Positions 46,743 to 62,070 of a stretch of DNA of 64,000 nucleotides are shown piece after piece; within the stretch, counting starts at the first letter, position 1; the number at the start of each line of letters is the position of its first letter. Where the stretch lies: IMG/VR virus record IMGVR_UViG_3300044929_000080. The stretch is one strand, 5' to 3'. A program made the position numbers and the translations under genes. Under the pieces are notes generated by a model. The model was not told where the DNA came from. It did not search any database and saw only the letters and a program-made list of their open reading frames with translations. This DNA comes from a virus (taxonomy: Duplodnaviria > Heunggongvirae > Uroviricota > Caudoviricetes).

Positions 46743-47387
46743 ATGAGCAATCAAATTGACTTAAATATTTTCGTTACGTCGTTATCTGGGGCCAGGCGCG
46801 CAAAGAGGAAGTGTGACGCAGTCCTTACGATTGAAGATCCACTATACAAACACGGCCTACGCTTTCACAAAAAGCCGCATCCTGATCACTTGGTTCTTAT
46901 GTTCGAGGATGTTGATTTTTATCAAGGTAATATCGCAATGCCAGACATCAAACATGTCGAAGCCGCGATTGATTTTGCCCGAGAACATGTTGACCATAGA
47001 CTTCTAGTTCATTGCAAGGCTGGGATTGCGCGTTCAACTGCAATGGCGTTAGCGATTATTGCTGACAGACTTGGAAAAGGAAATGAACCGGAGGCGGTAA
47101 AATATCTCCTTCAAATTCGCAATGAGGCAGCCCCAAATCTGTTTTTACTGGATATGGTTGACGATTACCTTGATCGTGAAGGTCGATTAAGAAATGCTTG
47201 GTTGTCAGTTGAAAATGCACATGAGCATTATGCCAATCATCGAAAACTAAAACGTGAGATACTGGAGAAGAACCCAGCTCTTTACAGAGAACCATTCAGC
47301 TGCCTGTCCTACAGTGCGTGGCGATATCGTCCAACCACACTCATAAGAGAAGCGGTTATTGAATCGAATGTTGTCCCTGCCCTTTGA
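46743..47387 (+). CDS. Protein-tyrosine/dual-specificity phosphatase family
   Basis: CX5R loop 'VHCKAGIARS', acid loop 'LMFEDV', 'PN' motif. Confidence 0.88.
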   Translation: MSNQIDLNIFVTSLSGARRAKRKCDAVLTIEDPLYKHGLRFHKKPHPDHLVLMFEDVDFYQGNIAMPDIKHVEAAIDFAREHVDHRLLVHCKAGIARSTAMALAIIADRLGKGNEPEAVKYLLQIRNEAAPNLFLLDMVDDYLDREGRLRNAWLSVENAHEHYANHRKLKREILEKNPALYREPFSCLSYSAWRYRPTTLIREAVIESNVVPAL

Positions 47388-47451
47388 GTTCCTGTGCTCT
47401 TGAGGGTTGCATCTTCAATGAAGGATACGGAAAATACTGAGATTATCCGTA

Positions 47452-48984
47452 TCAGAACCTTGGACCAGGTAAAGACTCGCCAAGCTGGACGTAGTCGTTT
47501 TCCAGATCAGAAGCATGCCGTCCTCGAATACGGGTTGCTAATCGATCCCTATTAATCACCGCTTTTTTCGTTTCATCATCGGGAGATTTCGATAAAGCAT
47601 AGAGATGGCCAGCCTCCTCATCAAACACGCTTTTTAGGTCGTCTGGAACATTATAGCCTTCAAAAAGGGCTAAACGGGCGCTGGCATTGTCATTGACTGA
47701 GAATTCACTTACCAGTTGCTGTATCTCATAACGATACCGATCTTCGACTGCCTGTCGTTGATCCGCATCCAATCCCGAAAAACTGACACCGATGTTCTTT
47801 GCTACAAGGGCGGCTGACTTCATTTCACGTTCAGTCGCAACATCACGACCGTCTTCGGCTCCAAATCTGCTAGCGGGTAATGCAACTTTTTTAGCAATTT
47901 TGGTTGCGATGGCGATAATTTCACGCATCGATGCATCATGCGGAACGTCTGCTGCGAAAGCCGCACGCAGAGCTTTGTGAGTAGCTTGCCCAAGAACACC
48001 TTCCTTGAGAGTACCAGGAGTTGTATGGAAGCGACTTTGCCCATAATGAAGGGAGGCTTCTTTAAGGTCTGCAATTTCTGCAACAACCGTACTGCGACCC
48101 CCGTCTCTTAAAAAAAGAATGGCTGCTGTCGCATCTGCAAAACAAGACGCTATGTGACGCGCACGAGGAGAGCTTTCAACATCCGCCTGCAATCCTTCGG
48201 CAGCCCCAAGACAATTGTGAGCCAGCCCAAGGGCAATCGTTCGGGCAGCGCAAAATTTGCGAGTTTCATCGAGATCCATACTTACTAAAGGAAACGCTCG
48301 ACTACCCATCGAAGACAATTCCCGCGCATAAGCGGAAGGACCAACAAACGGAGAATATGGCAAAATGAAATTCAAGGAGATTTCCTTATTGCCAGTAATG
48401 TTTTCTGTCATGCGACTGCAGTGAGGTTTAAAGCCAGCGCGCAACAGAACAGTTAGATCATTCAAGCTCCTGATCGATCCTTCCACATCAGCTGGCAAAG
48501 TGCTATCTCGTAGAGACGCCGTTTCCCAATTGGATCGAGCAACGGCCTGAACGTCAATGACATTCAAAGCAACACCCCGGCGCATGGCTTCATCTGAAAA
48601 AACATCCAGAGCCCAATTCAAATGACTGTCTTCGCTCACGGGAGCGCGCTCGATGGAAACACCAGCGCCTGGAGAAACAACTGCTGATTTAGAGCGCGCC
48701 AATAATTTTGCAAGCATACGGGCAGTAATGTCAGAACGTCTTCCCATCATGATAATGCGATGAGAACCTTCCATAATCACATCCAGGACACTATTCTTAA
48801 GACGCATCTCAGCATTGCCAAAGTCATCAAAGTGAAGTCGACCAACGACATCGCCACCTATATTGGGCTTTATATCGCCCTTAAAAGTGACATCCAGTAC
48901 AGTGCCATCGCGACGAACAACGACATATTGATCGTCACCGCGTTTGGCACGAACGGTTCCAACAATGACTTCACCTTCTTTCAT
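47452..48984 (-). CDS. Hypothetical protein
   Basis: 510 aa ORF. Confidence 0.7.
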   Translation of the reverse strand: MKEGEVIVGTVRAKRGDDQYVVVRRDGTVLDVTFKGDIKPNIGGDVVGRLHFDDFGNAEMRLKNSVLDVIMEGSHRIIMMGRRSDITARMLAKLLARSKSAVVSPGAGVSIERAPVSEDSHLNWALDVFSDEAMRRGVALNVIDVQAVARSNWETASLRDSTLPADVEGSIRSLNDLTVLLRAGFKPHCSRMTENITGNKEISLNFILPYSPFVGPSAYARELSSMGSRAFPLVSMDLDETRKFCAARTIALGLAHNCLGAAEGLQADVESSPRARHIASCFADATAAILFLRDGGRSTVVAEIADLKEASLHYGQSRFHTTPGTLKEGVLGQATHKALRAAFAADVPHDASMREIIAIATKIAKKVALPASRFGAEDGRDVATEREMKSAALVAKNIGVSFSGLDADQRQAVEDRYRYEIQQLVSEFSVNDNASARLALFEGYNVPDDLKSVFDEEAGHLYALSKSPDDETKKAVINRDRLATRIRGRHASDLENDYVQLGESLPGPRF

Positions 48985-48986
48985 AT

Positions 48987-49310
48987 TTACGCTCCAAAAT
49001 TCATACCAACTGAACGTGGGAGAGCGTCAACCTGATACTCATCAGACTGAATTTCACCGTTCACAAACTCTCTCAACATAAAAGGTCCGGCCGAATAAGA
49101 ATATTCATAATCATCAGCCGTCATTCCTTCTGGAATGATATATTTTGCGCCATCAGAACTTGTCAGAAAGAAGCCTTCATCATCAAAACCAACGTTATCA
49201 AATTTCGTGCCGCGCATCTGTTCAGGCAAATCAATTATACAAACAGTTGCGTCTTTGCTCATAACCACAAGCGCCGCGTCCAGCACGTTTTCAGAGGTAT
49301 CAATACTCAT
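48987..49310 (-). CDS. Hypothetical acidic protein
   Basis: Start ATG 49310 with RBS ggag; 107 aa. Confidence 0.65.
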   Translation of the reverse strand: MSIDTSENVLDAALVVMSKDATVCIIDLPEQMRGTKFDNVGFDDEGFFLTSSDGAKYIIPEGMTADDYEYSYSAGPFMLREFVNGEIQSDEYQVDALPRSVGMNFGA

Positions 49311-49466
49311 CTTATTCTCCAGAAATCTACAGAGTGATCTTCTCACCAGACCCAGCAAGCAACCACAAACATTTTTCGTTTTTGTGAATGAGATTTCAGA
49401 TAAAGATGCAGATAAATAAATATTCAGATAGCTAAGGAGCGTTTAAATGATTGGCTCGCGACGGAA

Positions 49467-49546: not shown

Positions 49547-51235
49547 CTACATCCGGCCTGGAACTTCAATACCTAGCAGATAAAGACATTTGGTCAGTAT
49601 CGCGTCTACGAACTGACAGATCGCCATACGTGAAGCATTGACTTTGCCATTTTGAACGACCTGGCATTCGGCATAGAAACGACTAAACGCCTGTGCGACA
49701 GAAAAGGCAAATTCTGCAATCTCTTTTGGTTGATACCGATTAACTGCCAACTGGACCGCAATTGGAAACCCACTGCATGCGAGAAGTAATTGACGTTCAG
49801 CTTCGTGATCAATCTTGATCTCTCCAATTTTCCCATCAAATGGAAAATCAAACGCCTTTAACACGACACTGCGAATACGAGCACACGCATACTGAAGATA
49901 TGGCCCCGTCTTTCCTTCAGGCGCAGTCATCCGCTCAGGGTCGAAGACATAACCAGAGATACGATCCGTCGACAGATCGGCGAACTTCAGGGCACCAATT
50001 GCAATCTTCTCCGCGATCTCATGATTGCCATCACCAACACGTACTTTAGCCTGCTCAACAGTTGAAGCGATGAGATCGGTTAACTTTGCAACGCCACCAT
50101 CACGGGTCTTAAACGGCTTCCCATCCTTTCCATTGACGGTTCCAAAGGCGACATGCACCAGTTCTGCACCCTTGTCGAAACCTGCCTTCCGGGCGACTTC
50201 AAAAACAGAATGCAGATGCTGCTCCTGCCGCTGGTCGACGACATACAGGATTTTAGTAGCGCCGATGGCTTGCGTCCGGTTCATCAAAGTAGCCAGATCA
50301 GTTGCGCCGTAAAGAGCTGCACCATCGGATTTCTGGACAATAAGCGGTGGAAGTCCGTCAGCAACATCAACAACCAGCGCGCCATCACTCTTACGAAGAA
50401 GACCCTGGGTGTCTAAATCCTCCAGCATTTCAGGCAAAGCATCATTCACGTCAGATTCGCCAAGCATTAAATCGAAATGAGCGTGGAGCTTATTGATATC
50501 GCCAGAGATTGAAGCCAGCGACACCTGACGCATTTCTTGCCAAACTGAATGCAGATATGGATCGCCAGCCTGAAGATTTTGCGTCAGTTTCCGAGCATGA
50601 CCAAGAACTGTCTCGTTTTCTTTGGCATCCTTGCTCGCAACGCGATACATTTCTTCCAGAGTGAATACATCAAAGTCAGGGATGACCTCGTTTACCCATT
50701 CATCATGATAATCAGCACTCATCTGGTGAAGAAGCATCCCCATTTGAAGGCCCCAGTCGCCCCAGTGAATATCTGACACGACGTTATAACCCACGAAATT
50801 CAGTAACCGACGCAGACTTTCACCGATCACAAATGACCGCAAGTGACCGACATGCAGTGGTTTTGCGACATTTGGACCACCAAAGTCGATGACAACTGTC
50901 TGATCTGGTGTGACCTTTTCAATACCGAGGTCAACAGATGAAAGCATGCTTAGAACCTGAGATTCAACAAAGCTTGGTGACAATTTCAAATTGATGAAGC
51001 CAGGTCCTCCAATAGATACGTCAGCAAAAACAGAATTCGTCTTAATATCAGCAATGATAAGTTCAGCAAGATCGCGTGGCTTCATTCCAATTGAGGGTGC
51101 AACCGACATGACATCATTGCATTGATAGTCATACCCAGGGGTGCGGTTTGGTTTAAGAACAGTATTAATTTCAACGGATGCAATTTTAAGAAAAGCCGCC
51201 TCGATTGGAGCGGCCACACTCTGCAATAAAGTCAT
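49547..51235 (-). CDS. argS: Arginine--tRNA ligase
   Basis: 'GPGFIN', 'DFGGPNVAKPLHVGHLRS' (HIGH), 'KPFKTRDG', DALR-like 'GPYLQYACARIRS'. Confidence 0.96.
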   Translation of the reverse strand: MTLLQSVAAPIEAAFLKIASVEINTVLKPNRTPGYDYQCNDVMSVAPSIGMKPRDLAELIIADIKTNSVFADVSIGGPGFINLKLSPSFVESQVLSMLSSVDLGIEKVTPDQTVVIDFGGPNVAKPLHVGHLRSFVIGESLRRLLNFVGYNVVSDIHWGDWGLQMGMLLHQMSADYHDEWVNEVIPDFDVFTLEEMYRVASKDAKENETVLGHARKLTQNLQAGDPYLHSVWQEMRQVSLASISGDINKLHAHFDLMLGESDVNDALPEMLEDLDTQGLLRKSDGALVVDVADGLPPLIVQKSDGAALYGATDLATLMNRTQAIGATKILYVVDQRQEQHLHSVFEVARKAGFDKGAELVHVAFGTVNGKDGKPFKTRDGGVAKLTDLIASTVEQAKVRVGDGNHEIAEKIAIGALKFADLSTDRISGYVFDPERMTAPEGKTGPYLQYACARIRSVVLKAFDFPFDGKIGEIKIDHEAERQLLLACSGFPIAVQLAVNRYQPKEIAEFAFSVAQAFSRFYAECQVVQNGKVNASRMAICQFVDAILTKCLYLLGIEVPGRM

Positions 51236-51281
51236 AATTTTTCCTTTAAAAGTAGGATGCGCATAAGGGGTGAGGTGAAAA

Positions 51282-51329
51282 TTATCGTCGTCTTCGCTTT
51301 AATCCATTAATATATAAAATATTACACAT
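51282..51329 (-). CDS. Putative argS leader peptide MCNILYINGLKRRRR
   Basis: SD GAGGG then ATG ATG (51332/51329); ends AAG CGA AGA CGA CGA TAA, 46 nt before the argS ATG. Confidence 0.7.
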   Translation of the reverse strand: MCNILYINGLKRRRR

Positions 51330-51512
51330 CATATCCCTCAAGAATTTCACAAAAGGAGTAGCAATTAATGAAAATGATTTCAACCTTTTTTAAAAATTAA
51401 CTGCCAATATTATTGCTATGTATGTGGCGATAAATCCAGATGGCAATTAACTGGGCATCATTTACACTTTCTTTGATTTTTGCTTTAATAAATCTGAAAT
51501 AAGGAGATAAAA

Positions 51513-52538
51513 GTGACCGAAAAATTTTTAGTTAGAGTGATCCATGGATCTCATTTGTTTGGAACCAACACCGAAACGTCCGATATGGACATCAAATCGG
51601 TCGTACAGCCAAGCGTAGAAGATATTCTCCTTGGAAATTTTAATTGGTCGAGAGCTATTGGCGCTGATAGCACTCGCGCAAACACCAAGGATGATGTCGA
51701 CGACGAACGTCATGATCTTAAACGCTTCATGCAGCTTCTCACTACGGGACAGCCGATGGCACTTGAAATCCTGTTCGCACCAGATCAGTTCCATGTTGGA
51801 GAGACGCACCCAATATGGAAGGAGTTACAGAACAATTCAAACCTGCTGATTTCGCGGCAATCACAGAAGTTCCTTGGCTATTGCCGTCAGCAAGCAATGT
51901 CTCATGGCCTCAAAGGAGAGCGCCTGGACGCAGCTGAAAAGGTTCAGGTGATCGTCAATCGCCTTGTTGCAAAAGAAGGGCCTAGGAAAATCCTGAAGGA
52001 TTACCTCGATATGATCGTAACAGAGGTTAACTCACCTCACGTATCGGAAGTCTTCAGAACGACTGTCGACGGCAAAAAACTCAGCCATTTAAAAATCTCC
52101 AACAAGCTCGCCGCCGCTACCATCGAATTGAAGGAAGTGAAGGATATCTGCGATAACGTTGTTCAAAACTATGGTCGCCGCGCTCGCATGGCCCAGGAAG
52201 GACAAGGAAAAGACTGGAAAGCTCTCAGCCACGCTTTGCGCATTGGATATGAGGCGCTGGAATTGTTTGAAACCTCTTTTATCACATTTCCCCGACCAGA
52301 AGCGGCATATTTGCTCGACGTCAAACTTGGCAATGTTGACCCTGATGTTGTTGGAAATGAAATCGAAGAACTTCTCTACAAGGTAGAAGATGCCTCAGCA
52401 AATTCGTCACTTCCAGAAAACCCCGATATAGACTTTATGAACAACCTCATCATCCAAACCTATGGCAATGCCGTATTCGAGGAATTTTCTTTAAACAAAG
52501 AATACGCGGAAGACGACCATCATTCGCCTACAATTTGA
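51513..52538 (+). CDS. Pol-beta superfamily nucleotidyltransferase (RlaP/phage-type)
   Basis: 'HGSHLFGTNTETSDMDIK' (GS...DxD), 'KFLGYC..Q', 'KDWKALSHALR'; GTG start with RBS aaggag. Confidence 0.8.
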   Translation: MTEKFLVRVIHGSHLFGTNTETSDMDIKSVVQPSVEDILLGNFNWSRAIGADSTRANTKDDVDDERHDLKRFMQLLTTGQPMALEILFAPDQFHVGETHPIWKELQNNSNLLISRQSQKFLGYCRQQAMSHGLKGERLDAAEKVQVIVNRLVAKEGPRKILKDYLDMIVTEVNSPHVSEVFRTTVDGKKLSHLKISNKLAAATIELKEVKDICDNVVQNYGRRARMAQEGQGKDWKALSHALRIGYEALELFETSFITFPRPEAAYLLDVKLGNVDPDVVGNEIEELLYKVEDASANSSLPENPDIDFMNNLIIQTYGNAVFEEFSLNKEYAEDDHHSPTI

Positions 52539-52543
52539 AACTT

Positions 52544-52587
52544 TCTAGAAGGGCTGTGATTTTATATTTGAACCGCAGCTCTTCTGG
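52544..52587 (+). terminator. 15-bp RNA hairpin with three G-U pairs
   Basis: TCTAGAAGGGCTGTG...CGCAGCTCTTCTGGA between co-oriented genes. Confidence 0.5.
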
Positions 52588-52595
52588 ATATTATA

Positions 52596-53696
52596 ATGCG
52601 TATTAGAAAACCAAATTTTTATATTGACTCATTTCGGAATACCCCGCGTATTCTCGCCAACGACATTGCTATTTGCCTGTCATCTCCTTCCGTTCAGGAA
52701 ATTATAGATGAAGTTTCCAAGAAATATTATTTACCAGCTTTTCAAAACAACAGACGCGAAGAAAACAGATTACTCGCCAATCAGGTTGCAACCGTTTTTT
52801 TCAAAACAGCTGATATAGATTTGGCATTGTCCAGCGTGAAGCCAATGGAAGCATCAGACGAAATTCTGGCCGATTGGAAAAATGAAATCAAAAATCTCAG
52901 GGCATTCCATCTCGTCAAAGATGCCATCGTTGATATGATGCGAGAGCTTCATGATCAGGAATGCGCTGATCGGGTTGAGAATACCGTTTCCGAAGCAATT
53001 TTGAATACAACTATTGAATCGGGAAGAAATCACGACGCTAGTAAACCACTGGATGCAATTAAAGGCATTCAGACAATATGCGCATATGTACCGCTATCTC
53101 ACGAGAAATCAGATCACGCAGACGTCTTTACGACATTCTGGTCAGATAGAAGCAATTCAACAACGATCAAGCCAAGTAAGGAATTCCTGGAGTTTCTAAA
53201 ATTAGCCAACATATCCACGAGCGAATGGAAAGACGCCGTTCTGGAAATCCATGATGTCGATCTTGAAGGAAGCCTGGATGATGATGCCTTCACATTTGAA
53301 ATCGAACGAGTTCATGCTTGGCAAAAAACCCATCAAGATGCAGATGACAGCAAACCATCACTCGTAGATGTCGAGGAACTTGTGTACGCCATCGACAATT
53401 GTCCATTTGGCTTTACGCCATTGGTATCATTCAGCATGCCAATTGAAGAACTGGTTCATCGTGACTGGAATGAGCCTATAAAGCTCACTGGAGGAATTTT
53501 AGGATTGCATGATTTCATCAATGGAAGCGGCGATCCCCTGCGATTTGAAGGCGAAATCGAACTATCACCGACGATTTCGAACATGATGGCTGCAGGAGCA
53601 CGAGCCAACGACATAGCGTCGGTACATGGCTTTGTAGATCAGAGCTTCAAATCACTCGTTGAAGACATAACGCCTGAGCGTCGCCTGGCCATGTGA
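52596..53696 (+). CDS. Hypothetical protein
   Basis: 366 aa ORF. Confidence 0.7.
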   Translation: MRIRKPNFYIDSFRNTPRILANDIAICLSSPSVQEIIDEVSKKYYLPAFQNNRREENRLLANQVATVFFKTADIDLALSSVKPMEASDEILADWKNEIKNLRAFHLVKDAIVDMMRELHDQECADRVENTVSEAILNTTIESGRNHDASKPLDAIKGIQTICAYVPLSHEKSDHADVFTTFWSDRSNSTTIKPSKEFLEFLKLANISTSEWKDAVLEIHDVDLEGSLDDDAFTFEIERVHAWQKTHQDADDSKPSLVDVEELVYAIDNCPFGFTPLVSFSMPIEELVHRDWNEPIKLTGGILGLHDFINGSGDPLRFEGEIELSPTISNMMAAGARANDIASVHGFVDQSFKSLVEDITPERRLAM

Positions 53697-58420: not shown

Positions 58421-60178
58421 ATGTCTGACACAGTAAGAACAAATAAGATTGAAGATGCAGGTGAATTCATTGCAGGCGCAAGAAAAGATTGGCACCTCAA
58501 GGCGATGTCGCGCGCTGACATAGAAACAATGACGGACGAGGAAATTGTCCTTAACGTCAAAAAAGACAATATTTGGCCAAAGCCAGACTATGAAAAACTG
58601 GTCGAAAATGGAATGGAGCCAAAGGCTGCAGCTCTCGTGAAGATCATCCGTGATCAAATGGCCCAAACACCTGGAGCATGGCGCGGGATTGATCCGATGG
58701 GTGGCCGCAAATCGTTCGTCGATCTGGTTGGATTTGTAAGAGACATAGCGACGTCTTGCAAGACAGTAGAGGACGTCGTGGGCATATATAGAAAATATGA
58801 GGATCATGCCAAGGAAAACAACATTGGTAATGATAAATGGGTCATCAACAAATCGAGAAGCAGCCCTCTTCATCTCAATTACAACAATGTCCGCAAAGCA
58901 GAGGACATGATCAAAGCAGGATTCCCAGCCAAAGAAAATGACTGGAAACGCAATTTGAAAGTCCTAAAGGGATGGGGCGGTTTCACGTTATTGCGCTCTA
59001 AATCAGTCGTGAAAAGTGGCTTCGAAAGCGAAGAAGCTGCATGGGAATGGGCAAAGGAGAACGCCACAAAGCGTACCGTTCAAAAATCTGATAAGAAAAA
59101 AGAATTCAAAAGACCTCATCTGGACAAACTTGAACGCTCAAACATGTCATATGACCGCCAAGGCCAGGATGTATCGGCAGATGATTTTCTGGAAGCATTT
59201 GGATTTCGCGGTGTTCAATTTGGAAACTGGCTTCCGGACGGGGAACGGCAACAAGTTCTAAATCTAGGTTATGAAGCGTTAATGGACCTTGCAGAGGTAA
59301 TGGGCTGGGAACCAAAAGCATTGTCACTCGACGGTACGCTCGGTGTAGCTTTCGGCGCACGTGGTACAGGAAGAGCCGCCGCCCATTATGAACCAGGACA
59401 GCGCGTGATCAATATGACCAAGCTCTCAGGCGCGGGTTCACTTGCACATGAATTCGCACATGCACTGGACCACTGGCTGGGAACAGGAACGACAATCCAG
59501 GTGCCTGGTGGGATTCCATCTGCAACTGGCTGGGATACCCACAATCTTGATCCAAGAAAGCTCTTGCCTCATCGAAGCGAAAACATTGGAAATGTTTTCG
59601 GGGATACGATGAAGACTATATACAGAAGAAAATTATCTAAGGATGAGAAACTTGGGCGACTTAGCTCTAGCCTGGTTAAAAACAAAACTGAGTTTGATAA
59701 ATATTATAAGATAACTCAAAAATTAATCGAAAACGGTCAACAAAAATCCAAGAGAAAATACTTTAAAGACTTGAACGACTGGCTTAAAGATACTAAGACC
59801 CGTATCGATTATCTCGAAGAAACAATTAAGCAAATCAACGAAGGAACGCTCGTTGATTTCGGAACCGACAATAGCGATTACTATAACGAAGCACAAAAAT
59901 TATGCGGTTCTTCTGATTACTACAAACGTCCAAATGAATTGTTCGCCAGAGCATTTGAATGTTGGATATATGACGAAATTCATGACACGGGAGGTTCGTC
60001 TGATTATCTCGTTCACAGTGTAGGCGACGATCCTAAGGCTGCAGAGGTATTCAAGGGCAACCCGTATCCATCTGGCGATGAACGCAAATCAATTGGCGCT
60101 CATATGAAAGAGATCGCTGAGACCGTAAAACCGGATGCTGAATTAACTCTTGCTTCTTCGGGAACACCACATTTGTGA
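58421..60178 (+). CDS. Polyvalent protein with LPD5-like N-terminus, zincin-like HExxH and LPD1 domain
   Basis: 'IEDAGEFIAGARKD', 'FRGVQFGNW', 'AFGARG', 'SLAHEFAHALD', 'RPNELFARAFE'. Confidence 0.85.
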   Translation: MSDTVRTNKIEDAGEFIAGARKDWHLKAMSRADIETMTDEEIVLNVKKDNIWPKPDYEKLVENGMEPKAAALVKIIRDQMAQTPGAWRGIDPMGGRKSFVDLVGFVRDIATSCKTVEDVVGIYRKYEDHAKENNIGNDKWVINKSRSSPLHLNYNNVRKAEDMIKAGFPAKENDWKRNLKVLKGWGGFTLLRSKSVVKSGFESEEAAWEWAKENATKRTVQKSDKKKEFKRPHLDKLERSNMSYDRQGQDVSADDFLEAFGFRGVQFGNWLPDGERQQVLNLGYEALMDLAEVMGWEPKALSLDGTLGVAFGARGTGRAAAHYEPGQRVINMTKLSGAGSLAHEFAHALDHWLGTGTTIQVPGGIPSATGWDTHNLDPRKLLPHRSENIGNVFGDTMKTIYRRKLSKDEKLGRLSSSLVKNKTEFDKYYKITQKLIENGQQKSKRKYFKDLNDWLKDTKTRIDYLEETIKQINEGTLVDFGTDNSDYYNEAQKLCGSSDYYKRPNELFARAFECWIYDEIHDTGGSSDYLVHSVGDDPKAAEVFKGNPYPSGDERKSIGAHMKEIAETVKPDAELTLASSGTPHL

Positions 60179-60187
60179 ACAAAGAAA

Positions 60188-60217
60188 AACGGCGTTGAGA
60201 TCACTCTCAACGCCGTT
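60188..60217. terminator. Bidirectional terminator
   Basis: AACGGCGTTGAGA-tcac-TCTCAACGCCGTT, 13-bp perfect arms between convergent genes. Confidence 0.85.
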
Positions 60218-60231
60218 CCCGTTGCCCGAGA

Positions 60232-62070
60232 TCACTCAGATCGAGGTGCCGAACACGCACCCGTCACAATCTCGGCGACCTCAATACCATCAAGGGTCTT
60301 TTTTTCCAAGAGGGCCTGTACCAGACGATCAAGACCGTCACGATTGGTTTCAAGAAGCAATTTGGCACGCCCATAAGCGTCATCAATCAACCTTCTTATT
60401 TCAGGCTCCGCAGCAGCTGTAGGCTTGCCATTATTATCGACTGCGCGAACCATGCCGATAACATCACTCATGCCCCATTCAGTGACCATTTTCTTGGCAA
60501 GGCTCGTGGCTTGCTCAATATCACCTGATGCACCTGTCGTGACATTTTCCTTACCAAGAACGATCTCTTCAGCAGCTCGACCTGCCATAGCGACATCCAG
60601 ATCAGCGTAGAGCTTACTGAGCGGCACAGAAAAACGATCCCGTTCGGGCAAACGCATGACAAGTCCTAGTGCTGCACCTCTTGGAATAATTGTTGCCTGA
60701 TGGACAGGGTCTGATGCCTTTGTAAGTGTGGCGACAACCGCATGTCCCGCCTCATGAACTGCGATAAGGTTCACATCCTGATCATCCAGAACAAGCGACT
60801 TGCGTTGCAACCCCATCAACACCTTGTCACGTGCTTCTTCAAAGTGCGACGCATTAATGGTCTTCATCTTGGCACGAGCAGCCAAGATTGCTGCTTCATT
60901 AACAAGATTTTCAAGATCGGCACCTGAGAACCCAGGTGTGCCTCGTGCAACGACTTGGAGGTCAACATCAGCATCGATTGGCTTGTTCTTCACATGAACT
61001 TCCAGAATTGCCTTGCGTCCATCCATATCGGAATGATTTACGAAGATATGTCGATCAAAACGCCCAGGACGTGTCAATGCAGAATCAAGAACATCAATTC
61101 GGTTCGTAGCTCCAATGACAACAATACCATCGCGAGGATTAAAACCATTCATCTCAGTGAGAAGTTGGTTCAGCGTCGTATCCTGCTCACGCCCAACATC
61201 ACTTGAACCGCCACCACGTTTACGAGCAACGCTATCGATTTCGTCAATAAAGATGATACATGGCGCATGTTTGCGAGCCTCTTTGAAAAGTTTCACAACA
61301 CGATTGCGACCAACGCCAACAAACATTGCCGAAAAATCAGAGCCTGTGATGGCAAAGAAATTCACGCCTGCCTCATTTGCCAATGCCTTTGCAAGCATCG
61401 TCTTGCCAGTTCCGGGAGGTCCGACCATGAGAACGCCGCGTGGCGGCTTAGCGCCAGTCACTTCATAAGCTTCCGGATTGGAAAGGAAATCCTTGACTTC
61501 CTCAAGTTCAAACTTGGTTTCGTCTTGTCCAGCGATATCAGAAAAACGTATTGTATTTTCCTTTGCAAGCTCTGGCCAACTGGACATTCCTCCTGTCGCG
61601 TTACGCAAGAATACAAAGCCTACCAAACCCAAAAGAGCCAAGAACGTAATCTGGAAGATGATACCAACAATATAACTTACAATTTCACCAATCGACTTAT
61701 CTTCCGGCCCTGGGAACGTGACATCAACTCCGGCATCCGCCAGATCTTTTGGGAATGTCGTAGAAACCAACCAACGGTCATGATTTAAAGTGTATTTCTG
61801 CCCATCTTCGCCAATGGCTTCAACTTTGCTCGATTGAATTTTCGCCGAGTTGATTTTGTGATCCTTGACCAGCGTTAGAAACTCACTGTAACCAACTTCT
61901 TTCGCTTTTTCCTTGGAAATATCCGTGGTTACAGCCGTATTAGCTCCGAAATACATGTTGACGAGCGAACCACCCGAAATGCTGATTATACCGGAAAGGG
62001 CAAAAGCAATCATGATGTTTCGAAATCCAATATCTCGAATAGTTTGAATTATTTTTTTAATTTTATCCAA
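60232..62070 (-). CDS. ftsH: ATP-dependent zinc metalloprotease FtsH
   Basis: Two TM segments, 'GPPGTGKT', 'IFIDEID', 'RPGRFDR', 'HEAGH'; TTG start with RBS aggag. Confidence 0.95.
   Translation of the reverse strand: MDKIKKIIQTIRDIGFRNIMIAFALSGIISISGGSLVNMYFGANTAVTTDISKEKAKEVGYSEFLTLVKDHKINSAKIQSSKVEAIGEDGQKYTLNHDRWLVSTTFPKDLADAGVDVTFPGPEDKSIGEIVSYIVGIIFQITFLALLGLVGFVFLRNATGGMSSWPELAKENTIRFSDIAGQDETKFELEEVKDFLSNPEAYEVTGAKPPRGVLMVGPPGTGKTMLAKALANEAGVNFFAITGSDFSAMFVGVGRNRVVKLFKEARKHAPCIIFIDEIDSVARKRGGGSSDVGREQDTTLNQLLTEMNGFNPRDGIVVIGATNRIDVLDSALTRPGRFDRHIFVNHSDMDGRKAILEVHVKNKPIDADVDLQVVARGTPGFSGADLENLVNEAAILAARAKMKTINASHFEEARDKVLMGLQRKSLVLDDQDVNLIAVHEAGHAVVATLTKASDPVHQATIIPRGAALGLVMRLPERDRFSVPLSKLYADLDVAMAGRAAEEIVLGKENVTTGASGDIEQATSLAKKMVTEWGMSDVIGMVRAVDNNGKPTAAAEPEIRRLIDDAYGRAKLLLETNRDGLDRLVQALLEKKTLDGIEVAEIVTGACSAPRSE

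Follow-up and report, generated by a model that had tools for sequence, protein, structure and literature searches.

A putative arginine-codon leader peptide upstream of an auxiliary arginyl-tRNA synthetase gene, with counterparts in alpha- and gamma-proteobacteria

What might four consecutive arginine codons, followed at once by a stop codon, be doing just ahead of a gene for arginyl-tRNA synthetase (ArgRS)? This question is raised by a stretch of 64,000 nucleotides (nt) recorded as a virus of the Caudoviricetes (IMG/VR record IMGVR_UViG_3300044929_000080), the whole of which we call the window. On its minus strand, a short open reading frame (ORF) that ends in the codons CGA AGA CGA CGA precedes argS, which encodes an auxiliary ArgRS. 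We judge it likely that this mini-gene is a cis-acting leader peptide gene that gauges the decoding of Arg codons and sets the expression of the auxiliary ArgRS. An initial annotation of the window had proposed such a translated Arg leader, acting by stalling and without a classical terminator. The core of that proposal is supported by leaders at 21 further loci, by their absence from 78 control loci and by a divergence in codon usage that is specific to Arg, all of which are comparisons of sequences.

When the minus strand was read again, the annotated mini-gene, its Shine-Dalgarno (SD) site, its codons, its coordinates and the 46-nt distance to argS all proved exact (Table 1). Two adjoining ATG codons are available as starts (51332-51330 and 51329-51327). 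Because the second is better spaced from the SD site (5 nt) and is aligned with the position at which the orthologous mini-genes begin, the leader peptide probably has 15 amino acids, MCNILYINGLKRRRR, and is started at this second ATG. The mini-gene is a short ORF that has a ribosome-binding site to itself, shares the strand of argS and lies upstream of it, and its tandem codons specify the amino acid tied to that gene. The four Arg codons, which are preceded by AAG, occupy positions 51296-94 (CGA), 51293-91 (AGA), 51290-88 (CGA) and 51287-85 (CGA). In mononucleotide shuffles of the 277-nt intergenic region, an RRRR-stop arose only 14 times in 200,000; because it is so seldom seen in shuffles, a chance origin of the mini-gene's RRRR-stop is excluded. 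A search of positions 50000-53000 with the Rfam covariance models (cmscan, permissive thresholds) found no T-box or leader family, and gave only chance-level matches to eukaryotic small nucleolar RNAs and microRNAs (E > 1).

Conservation in orthologues was among the checks that the initial annotation had proposed. A search of species-representative genomes with the window ArgRS gave a sole match, a 78%-identical gene of Mesorhizobium sp. SP-1A. A search of proteins gave a small clade at 93-51% identity and then many matches at 44-51%, the named ones belonging to Rhizobium, Labrys, Agrobacterium, Dyella and Luteibacter. Among the relatives, a short ORF with 3-5 terminal Arg codons, located 44-67 nt from argS, is present at 21 further loci, with ArgRS identity down to 47%. 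All 10 of the closest loci (93-53% ArgRS identity) have an ORF of 12-16 codons that ends in RRR(R)(R)-stop and lies 44-53 nt before argS. The leader is also found ahead of the plasmid copy in R. leguminosarum pRlX5, where the frame ends in ..PARPRRRR-stop, as well as in Dyella caseinilytica and at the loci that we label L020, L108-L111, L117, L121, L125, L127 and L129. Its carriers are alpha- and gamma-proteobacteria, plasmids among them, and in a sample of the Dyella family it stands before 6 of 15 argS genes of the auxiliary type.

Across clades, only the Arg run at the end of the frame, the start codon and the interval before argS persist; the N-terminal residues diverge. Counted from the aligned ATG, the frame is 15 codons long in each of the seven closest sequences, in which the length of the spacer differs by 5-6 nt, and spacer insertions and deletions among relatives are not multiples of three. 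The SD stretch of the window mini-gene, GAGGGATATGATG, is also present in L006, and SD-like purine runs occur ahead of most orthologous mini-genes.

Our control set consisted of 78 generic argS loci (37-43% identity) taken from a metagenome scan with generic ArgRS motifs. An ORF of 5-40 codons ending in RRR-stop, at most 200 nt upstream, was found at none of the 78. Such a leader ORF is also missing from the canonical argS of two carrier genomes (L003 and L114). The 15 leader-bearing argS genes of the alpha type form one clade in a quick maximum-likelihood tree, with a support of 100 in the Shimodaira-Hasegawa-like approximate likelihood-ratio test (SH-aLRT), two gamma-proteobacterial carriers lie at an unresolved base, and the leader-less genes form the sister group. 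Presence of the leader requires three changes on this tree, and 0 of 500 label shuffles did as well.

The leader-less sister clade (L017-L019 and L021-L024, at ~49% identity) has a hairpin, GCGRACGCT...AGCGTCCGC, that encloses the argS SD just before the ATG, and in L021 an A-to-G change makes this stem perfect. The hairpin may represent another way of controlling this type of ArgRS.

The choice of codons within the Arg run is a further line of evidence. The initial annotation had reasoned that CGA and AGA are rare in a GC-rich background. This premise was mistaken, as the window has ~45% G+C and the two codons make up 30% of the Arg codons in its 45 long ORFs (CGT 26%, CGC 25%, AGA 17%, CGA 13%, CGG 11%, AGG 8%), so that they are in the minority but not rare. 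CGA is read by way of an inosine-adenine wobble, and AGA and AGG are read by minor tRNAs. In an assay based on Salmonella hisL, the slowest Arg codons were CGA, AGA and AGG, and pairs of CGA stalled most strongly (PMC4046918). These three slow codons account for most of the Arg codons in all 17 leaders that we tabulated, whose hosts range from 47 to 71% G+C, and only for 0-16% of the Arg codons in the argS ORFs beside those leaders. Four further gamma-proteobacterial leaders have CGA CGA CGC or CGA CGA CGA.

In the window, argS contains no slow codon among its 23 Arg codons (CGT 10, CGC 4, CGG 9), compared with 38% across the window. No codon family other than Arg sets argS apart from the other long ORFs of the window (p = 2e-5 for Arg; p > 0.06 for the others), and in tyrS, which lies in the same window, 10 of 27 Arg codons are slow. 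The same depletion of argS relative to its neighbouring genes is seen at 8 of 8 other loci (0-12% versus 34-47%, p from 1e-5 to 2e-3). These counts fit a sensor made of codons that the response gene avoids, such that argS would be translatable while the leader stalls.

The product of the controlled gene is, from its domains and motifs, a class I arginyl-tRNA synthetase. The domains PF03485 (Arg_tRNA_synt_N), PF00750 (tRNA-synt_1d core) and PF05746 (DALR anticodon-binding) are found by Pfam on all of its relatives, its HIGH-type motif HVGH (residues 128-131) is invariant in 12 ArgRS sequences, and it matches phrog_15344 at 8.5e-140. A second, distant ArgRS gene is present in six of six genomes that carry an ArgRS of this type, and the type occurs in 1 of 61 relatives of a Mesorhizobium-labelled genome, in 2 of the 301 genomes in the family that includes G118 and in 15 of the 201 in the family to which the Dyella genome G727 belongs. 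By these counts it is a rare extra copy and not the housekeeping enzyme; because the gene is an extra copy, inducible control makes sense.

We infer that the leader frame is translated and that a stall raises argS expression. The proposed control would then operate as follows. A ribosome reading the frame of 15-16 codons would meet four slow Arg codons just ahead of the stop. As long as charged tRNA-Arg is plentiful, the ribosome would terminate and depart, and argS expression would be low. When decoding is slow, the ribosome would stall at the end of the frame and hold the leader RNA open, and argS would be translated and transcribed through. The extra ArgRS would restore charging, which would constitute negative feedback.

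The step by which the stall is read out seems to vary, with one sensor wired to differing read-outs across lineages. In our models, the read-out in many relatives looks like an unmasking of the argS ribosome-binding site, which would be paired inside the mini-gene. In L001, L008, L011, L013, L020, L109 and L111, the mini-gene pairs better with the argS SD than a shuffled version of it does, at z from -2.0 to -3.9. The sequences that pair are clade-specific. They are CCUUUG:CAAAGG in the L001 group and CCAUUCCU:AAGGAAUGG in pRlX5, and L109 forms a 13-bp helix; three CGA codons of L117 and L129 immediately follow an anti-SD sequence (CUCC or UCUCC), which pairs with GGAG(A). When we modelled the footprint of a stalled ribosome, the accessibility of the SD increased in 11 of 17 leaders, was unchanged in 4 and decreased in 2, which is a result of the model only.

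In most leaders, the 5' side of a hairpin is made up of the last Arg codon, the stop codon or both, and in a few relatives the read-out looks like the blocking of a terminator that has the last Arg codon and the stop as its 5' arm. A terminator-like hairpin followed by a T-run was seen only in L011, L012 and L121, and a weak one in L125. That of L121 resembles a textbook terminator, in which the last Arg codon and the stop are the 5' arm of a strong hairpin with seven T following; its T-run can alternatively pair with the argS SD.

For the window itself, we considered an intrinsic terminator in the spacer and rejected it; there is none between the mini-gene and argS, where no hairpin plus T-run occurs, and the initial annotation had likewise found no strong one. 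A mutually exclusive antiterminator at the end of the leader ORF was also sought and none was found (the window fold has -4.2 kcal/mol and a consensus of 9 sequences -4.7 kcal/mol, with no alternative pair of hairpins). Because neither SD masking nor a terminator is detectable in the window, its read-out would likely be the occupancy of the ribosome beside the C-rich spacer (Rho protection) or a weak U-rich pairing. The initial annotation had pointed to a CCTT in the spacer as a complement of the argS SD; this motif is not conserved in L004 or L006, the two closest relatives, and we do not retain it as an element.

Another candidate, a hairpin at 51215-51194 within argS, was tried as an attenuator terminator and not adopted; it lies on conserved Ala codons that by nature pair with one another, and it scored as a terminator only in the window and not in relatives. 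This hairpin is kept in 9 aligned sequences with changes from A-U to G-C and from C-G to U-A at synonymous third positions, and perfect hairpins of Ala codons occupy the same place of argS in L108 and L110.

Several observations weigh against a leader peptide that senses the decoding of Arg codons. From the Arg run to the argS ATG, the leader RNA of the window is weakly structured compared with shuffles (z = +1.1), and over the same segment in relatives the z-scores of the folds are mostly non-significant, with structures that vary by clade, for which reason we claim no single conserved structure. The modelled accessibility of the SD in the window is 0.45, and that of the shuffled control is 0.46. 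The duplex of mini-gene and SD in the window is no better than in shuffles (z = +0.65), where the shuffle has low power for this U-rich clade. A hairpin that involves the Arg codons in the nearest relatives, L004 and L006 (AAGACGACG/CGTCTGTCTT), is broken in the window by four substitutions, and because of this the window copy of the leader could work differently or could be weakened or partly degenerate. A sigma-70-like promoter was sought upstream of the leader on the minus strand, and none was found. Many of the leaders share descent, so the counts given above are of dependent events. Finally, CGA is decoded by the same tRNA as CGU and CGC, by wobble decoding. The suggestion of the initial annotation that the leader senses specific isoacceptors is consequently only partly apt. 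A split in codon use between leader and argS does exist, but since CGA shares its tRNA with codons that argS uses freely, the split is kinetic and gives no clean separation of isoacceptors.

A block that resembles TTGAAA with an extended -10 is common to the window and L006; it was seen by eye only, and we do not claim it as a promoter.

It is important to weigh other explanations of the same sequences. One keeps the Arg sensor and assigns the read-out to Rho: the bare spacer would load Rho, and transcription would stop early in argS unless a stalled ribosome shields the start of the spacer, as is known for tnaC and orf34-speF. In 17 of 17 leaders, C outnumbers G in the spacer, which is 44-67 nt long (C13 and G4 in the window, which agrees with its initial description as C-rich and G-poor). 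Since the Arg run abuts the stop, a stalled ribosome would cover the first 12-15 nt of the spacer, a geometry inferred from known footprints. In addition, the window has no intrinsic terminator and little structure, and at speF, Rho is blocked when a leader ORF that contains consecutive Arg codons is translated (PMC6386406). However, a 46-nt spacer is short for Rho loading, the translation of argS begins right after it, and SD pairing and terminator-like hairpins account for control in relatives without Rho. We find this mode of read-out unlikely. It is very unlikely, in our estimation, that the mini-gene is a constitutive translational helper that opens the RNA or passes ribosomes to argS with no sensing of arginine. 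It has been proposed that leader ORFs that boost downstream translation without regulatory codons are common (PMC4833913), and the pairing of mini-gene and SD in relatives is compatible with unmasking by any passing ribosome. A helper of this kind leaves unexplained, however, why the terminal Arg run alone is kept while the peptide drifts, and why slow Arg codons are used across hosts of 45-70% G+C next to an argS that is purged of them.

The sensing could instead reside in the peptide, if a nascent chain of poly-Arg arrested the ribosome, either intrinsically, in response to free arginine, or in response to an antibiotic bound in the tunnel at Arg/Lys-X-Arg/Lys. RRRR is an extreme case of the +X+ motif, which is described as the context of macrolide-dependent arrest (PMC12583479), and the run is located at a stop codon, like that of tnaC-type arrest peptides. 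Yet a sensor at the level of the peptide has no need of the synonymous choice of CGA, AGA and AGG, which is kept; no peptide motif is kept beyond the Arg run; and the downstream gene is the cognate synthetase and not a resistance or catabolic gene. We give this explanation very little credence. We give still less to the idea that the conserved block CGAAGACGACG is a protein-binding site or an RNA motif in an untranslated element, with the open frame being accidental. Within the clade at 73-93% identity this block is almost invariant in its nucleotides, beyond what coding for Arg needs, but the distant leaders L011, L012, L109, L117 and L127 keep the Arg run and the stop with another codon order and sequence. 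Moreover, every leader has an open frame and a start codon, the latter mostly preceded by an SD, the frame length is constant, and the indels of the spacer are not multiples of three, which makes an accidental frame scarcely plausible.

A different matter is what a leader of this sort would report. The leader and argS might form a codon-partitioned stress module. It would report that particular tRNA-Arg species fail, be it through damage, lost modification, cleavage or depletion, and not how well arginine is supplied. The sensor would then consist only of the worst-decoded Arg codons, and argS, purged of them, would be made while they stall. Together with tyrS and genes for RNA repair, the module would make up a self-contained, travelling kit for the rescue of translation, carried on a large accessory replicon. 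We consider this specialized function unlikely, and for the comparisons that follow we return to our preferred reading, that of a leader peptide that gauges the decoding of Arg codons.

In the literature we found no description of an argS leader peptide; specifically, within the literature on leader-peptide control of synthetase genes, nothing is described for argS or for Arg codons in proteobacteria. The closest precedent is pheM-pheST of E. coli, in which a Phe-rich leader peptide and an attenuator precede the genes for PheRS. As in pheM-pheST, the argS leader is a short ORF in which codons for the substrate amino acid of the downstream synthetase occur in a run, and the logic would be common to both: a stalled ribosome reports a low level of charged tRNA, and the synthetase goes up. 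Unlike pheM, which works with a Rho-independent terminator and an antiterminator, the argS leader has no terminator in the window, its control codons are at the stop, its amino acid is arginine, and its target is an auxiliary gene. The pheM-pheST attenuator is cited as such in PMC1262725, and candidate attenuators have been described before trpS2 and leuS in Streptomyces (PMC1262725). The Streptomyces cases resemble ours as leader-peptide control of a synthetase outside the enterobacteria. They use classical terminator and antiterminator hairpins with Trp or Leu codons, whereas the argS leader belongs to alpha- and gamma-proteobacteria, has a structure that varies by clade, and relies on slow synonymous codons, which its target gene avoids. 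The trpRS1 of S. coelicolor is reportedly auxiliary and resistant to indolmycin. As with trpS2/trpRS1, control by the argS leader would apply to an auxiliary second copy of the synthetase gene, turned on when charging fails.

Among leaders of other genes, the fungal arginine attenuator peptide is encoded by an upstream ORF of arg-2/CPA1. Both it and, in our proposal, the argS leader stall at their own stop in a way that depends on arginine. The fungal peptide has 24 conserved residues that sense free arginine and repress the downstream gene, while in the argS leader only the codons are kept and induction by shortage is likely. In Salmonella orf34-speF, consecutive Arg codons in an upstream ORF report arginine, and translation both blocks Rho and opens a sequestered ribosome-binding site (PMC6386406). 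The upstream ORF of argS is similar in that its consecutive Arg codons would make the progress of the ribosome report the supply of arginine. However, orf34 has 34 codons, a conserved peptide domain, ornithine decarboxylase as its target, a partial dependence on RNase G, and Arg codons away from the stop. Relative to the tnaC and orf34-speF type in general, the argS leader has no conserved sensor peptide and keeps only the Arg run; this run abuts the stop beside a spacer with more C than G, but that spacer is short. SD masking of the ermC/cat type is predicted in several relatives of the argS leader, by the duplex z-scores and the anti-SD sequences, and is undetectable in the window. Taken as a leader-peptide control of a synthetase gene, the argS leader would be distinguished by slow Arg codons at the stop, an auxiliary target and an Arg-specific split of codons.

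Leader-peptide control of synthetases is textbook knowledge for pheST and has been predicted for a few trpS and leuS genes. The argS leader would add an example that is widely conserved in alpha- and gamma-proteobacteria and on plasmids, and that acts on a spare synthetase. It also suggests a design rule, by which the slowest synonymous codons are placed in the sensor and avoided by the controlled gene, and this bears on how the charging of tRNA isoacceptors is read. For annotation, an ORF of at most 20 codons that ends in RRR-stop, 44-67 nt before argS, can serve as the signature of a regulatory gene that goes unannotated.

Table 1. Features of the argS leader region and their positions in the window
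Feature	Position	Strand	Remarks
SD site GAGGG of the leader mini-gene	51335..51339	minus	read from the sequence; 5 nt from the second ATG
Leader mini-gene with stop, M(M)CNILYINGLKRRRR-stop	51282..51332	minus	16 codons from the first ATG, 15 from the second
Putative sensor codons CGA AGA CGA CGA	51285..51296	minus	abut the TAA stop at 51284-51282
Spacer from leader stop to argS start	51236..51281	minus	46 nt; C-rich, G-poor (C13, G4)
argS SD region AAAGGAA	51241..51247	minus	AAGGA kept in close relatives
Hairpin in argS codons 7-14, followed by TTTTCTT	51194..51215	minus	7 pairs, 5 of them G-C; role in control uncertain
argS, auxiliary arginyl-tRNA synthetase	49547..51235	minus	562 amino acids; ATG at 51235

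As to the origin of argS, we looked for a close relative of its ArgRS in viral contigs and phage records and found none, and a phage origin of the gene is thus unsupported. In G001, a genome labelled Mesorhizobium, the region of the leader-bearing argS (L001) has 51-54% G+C and lies on a 1.19-Mb contig, and the canonical copy L003 is on another contig; the leader-bearing argS of this genome may be on a foreign large replicon. At L014 (Sinorhizobium meliloti M270 pSymA), the match to ArgRS begins only at about residue 25, and an unrelated ORF, recombinase-like by eye only, lies upstream, so that this argS is probably a truncated gene.

The neighbourhood of argS in the window (46743-49358 and 51513-53696) comprises genes for an RlaP-like nucleotidyltransferase (a match to phrog_388 at 2.6e-73), a 366-amino-acid protein, argS itself, a 107-amino-acid protein, a 510-amino-acid protein and a DSPc-like phosphatase. 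A core of these, namely the RlaP-like gene and the genes for the 366-, 107- and 510-amino-acid proteins, is kept around argS down to 51% ArgRS identity. A PADLOC scan of the neighbour genes gave no match to a defence system. Farther away, at 58421-62070, a gene for a 585-amino-acid protein with an LPD1 domain adjoins a gene for an FtsH-like AAA protease; the LPD1 domain is typical of large polyvalent proteins of mobile elements, and its presence fits an accessory replicon.
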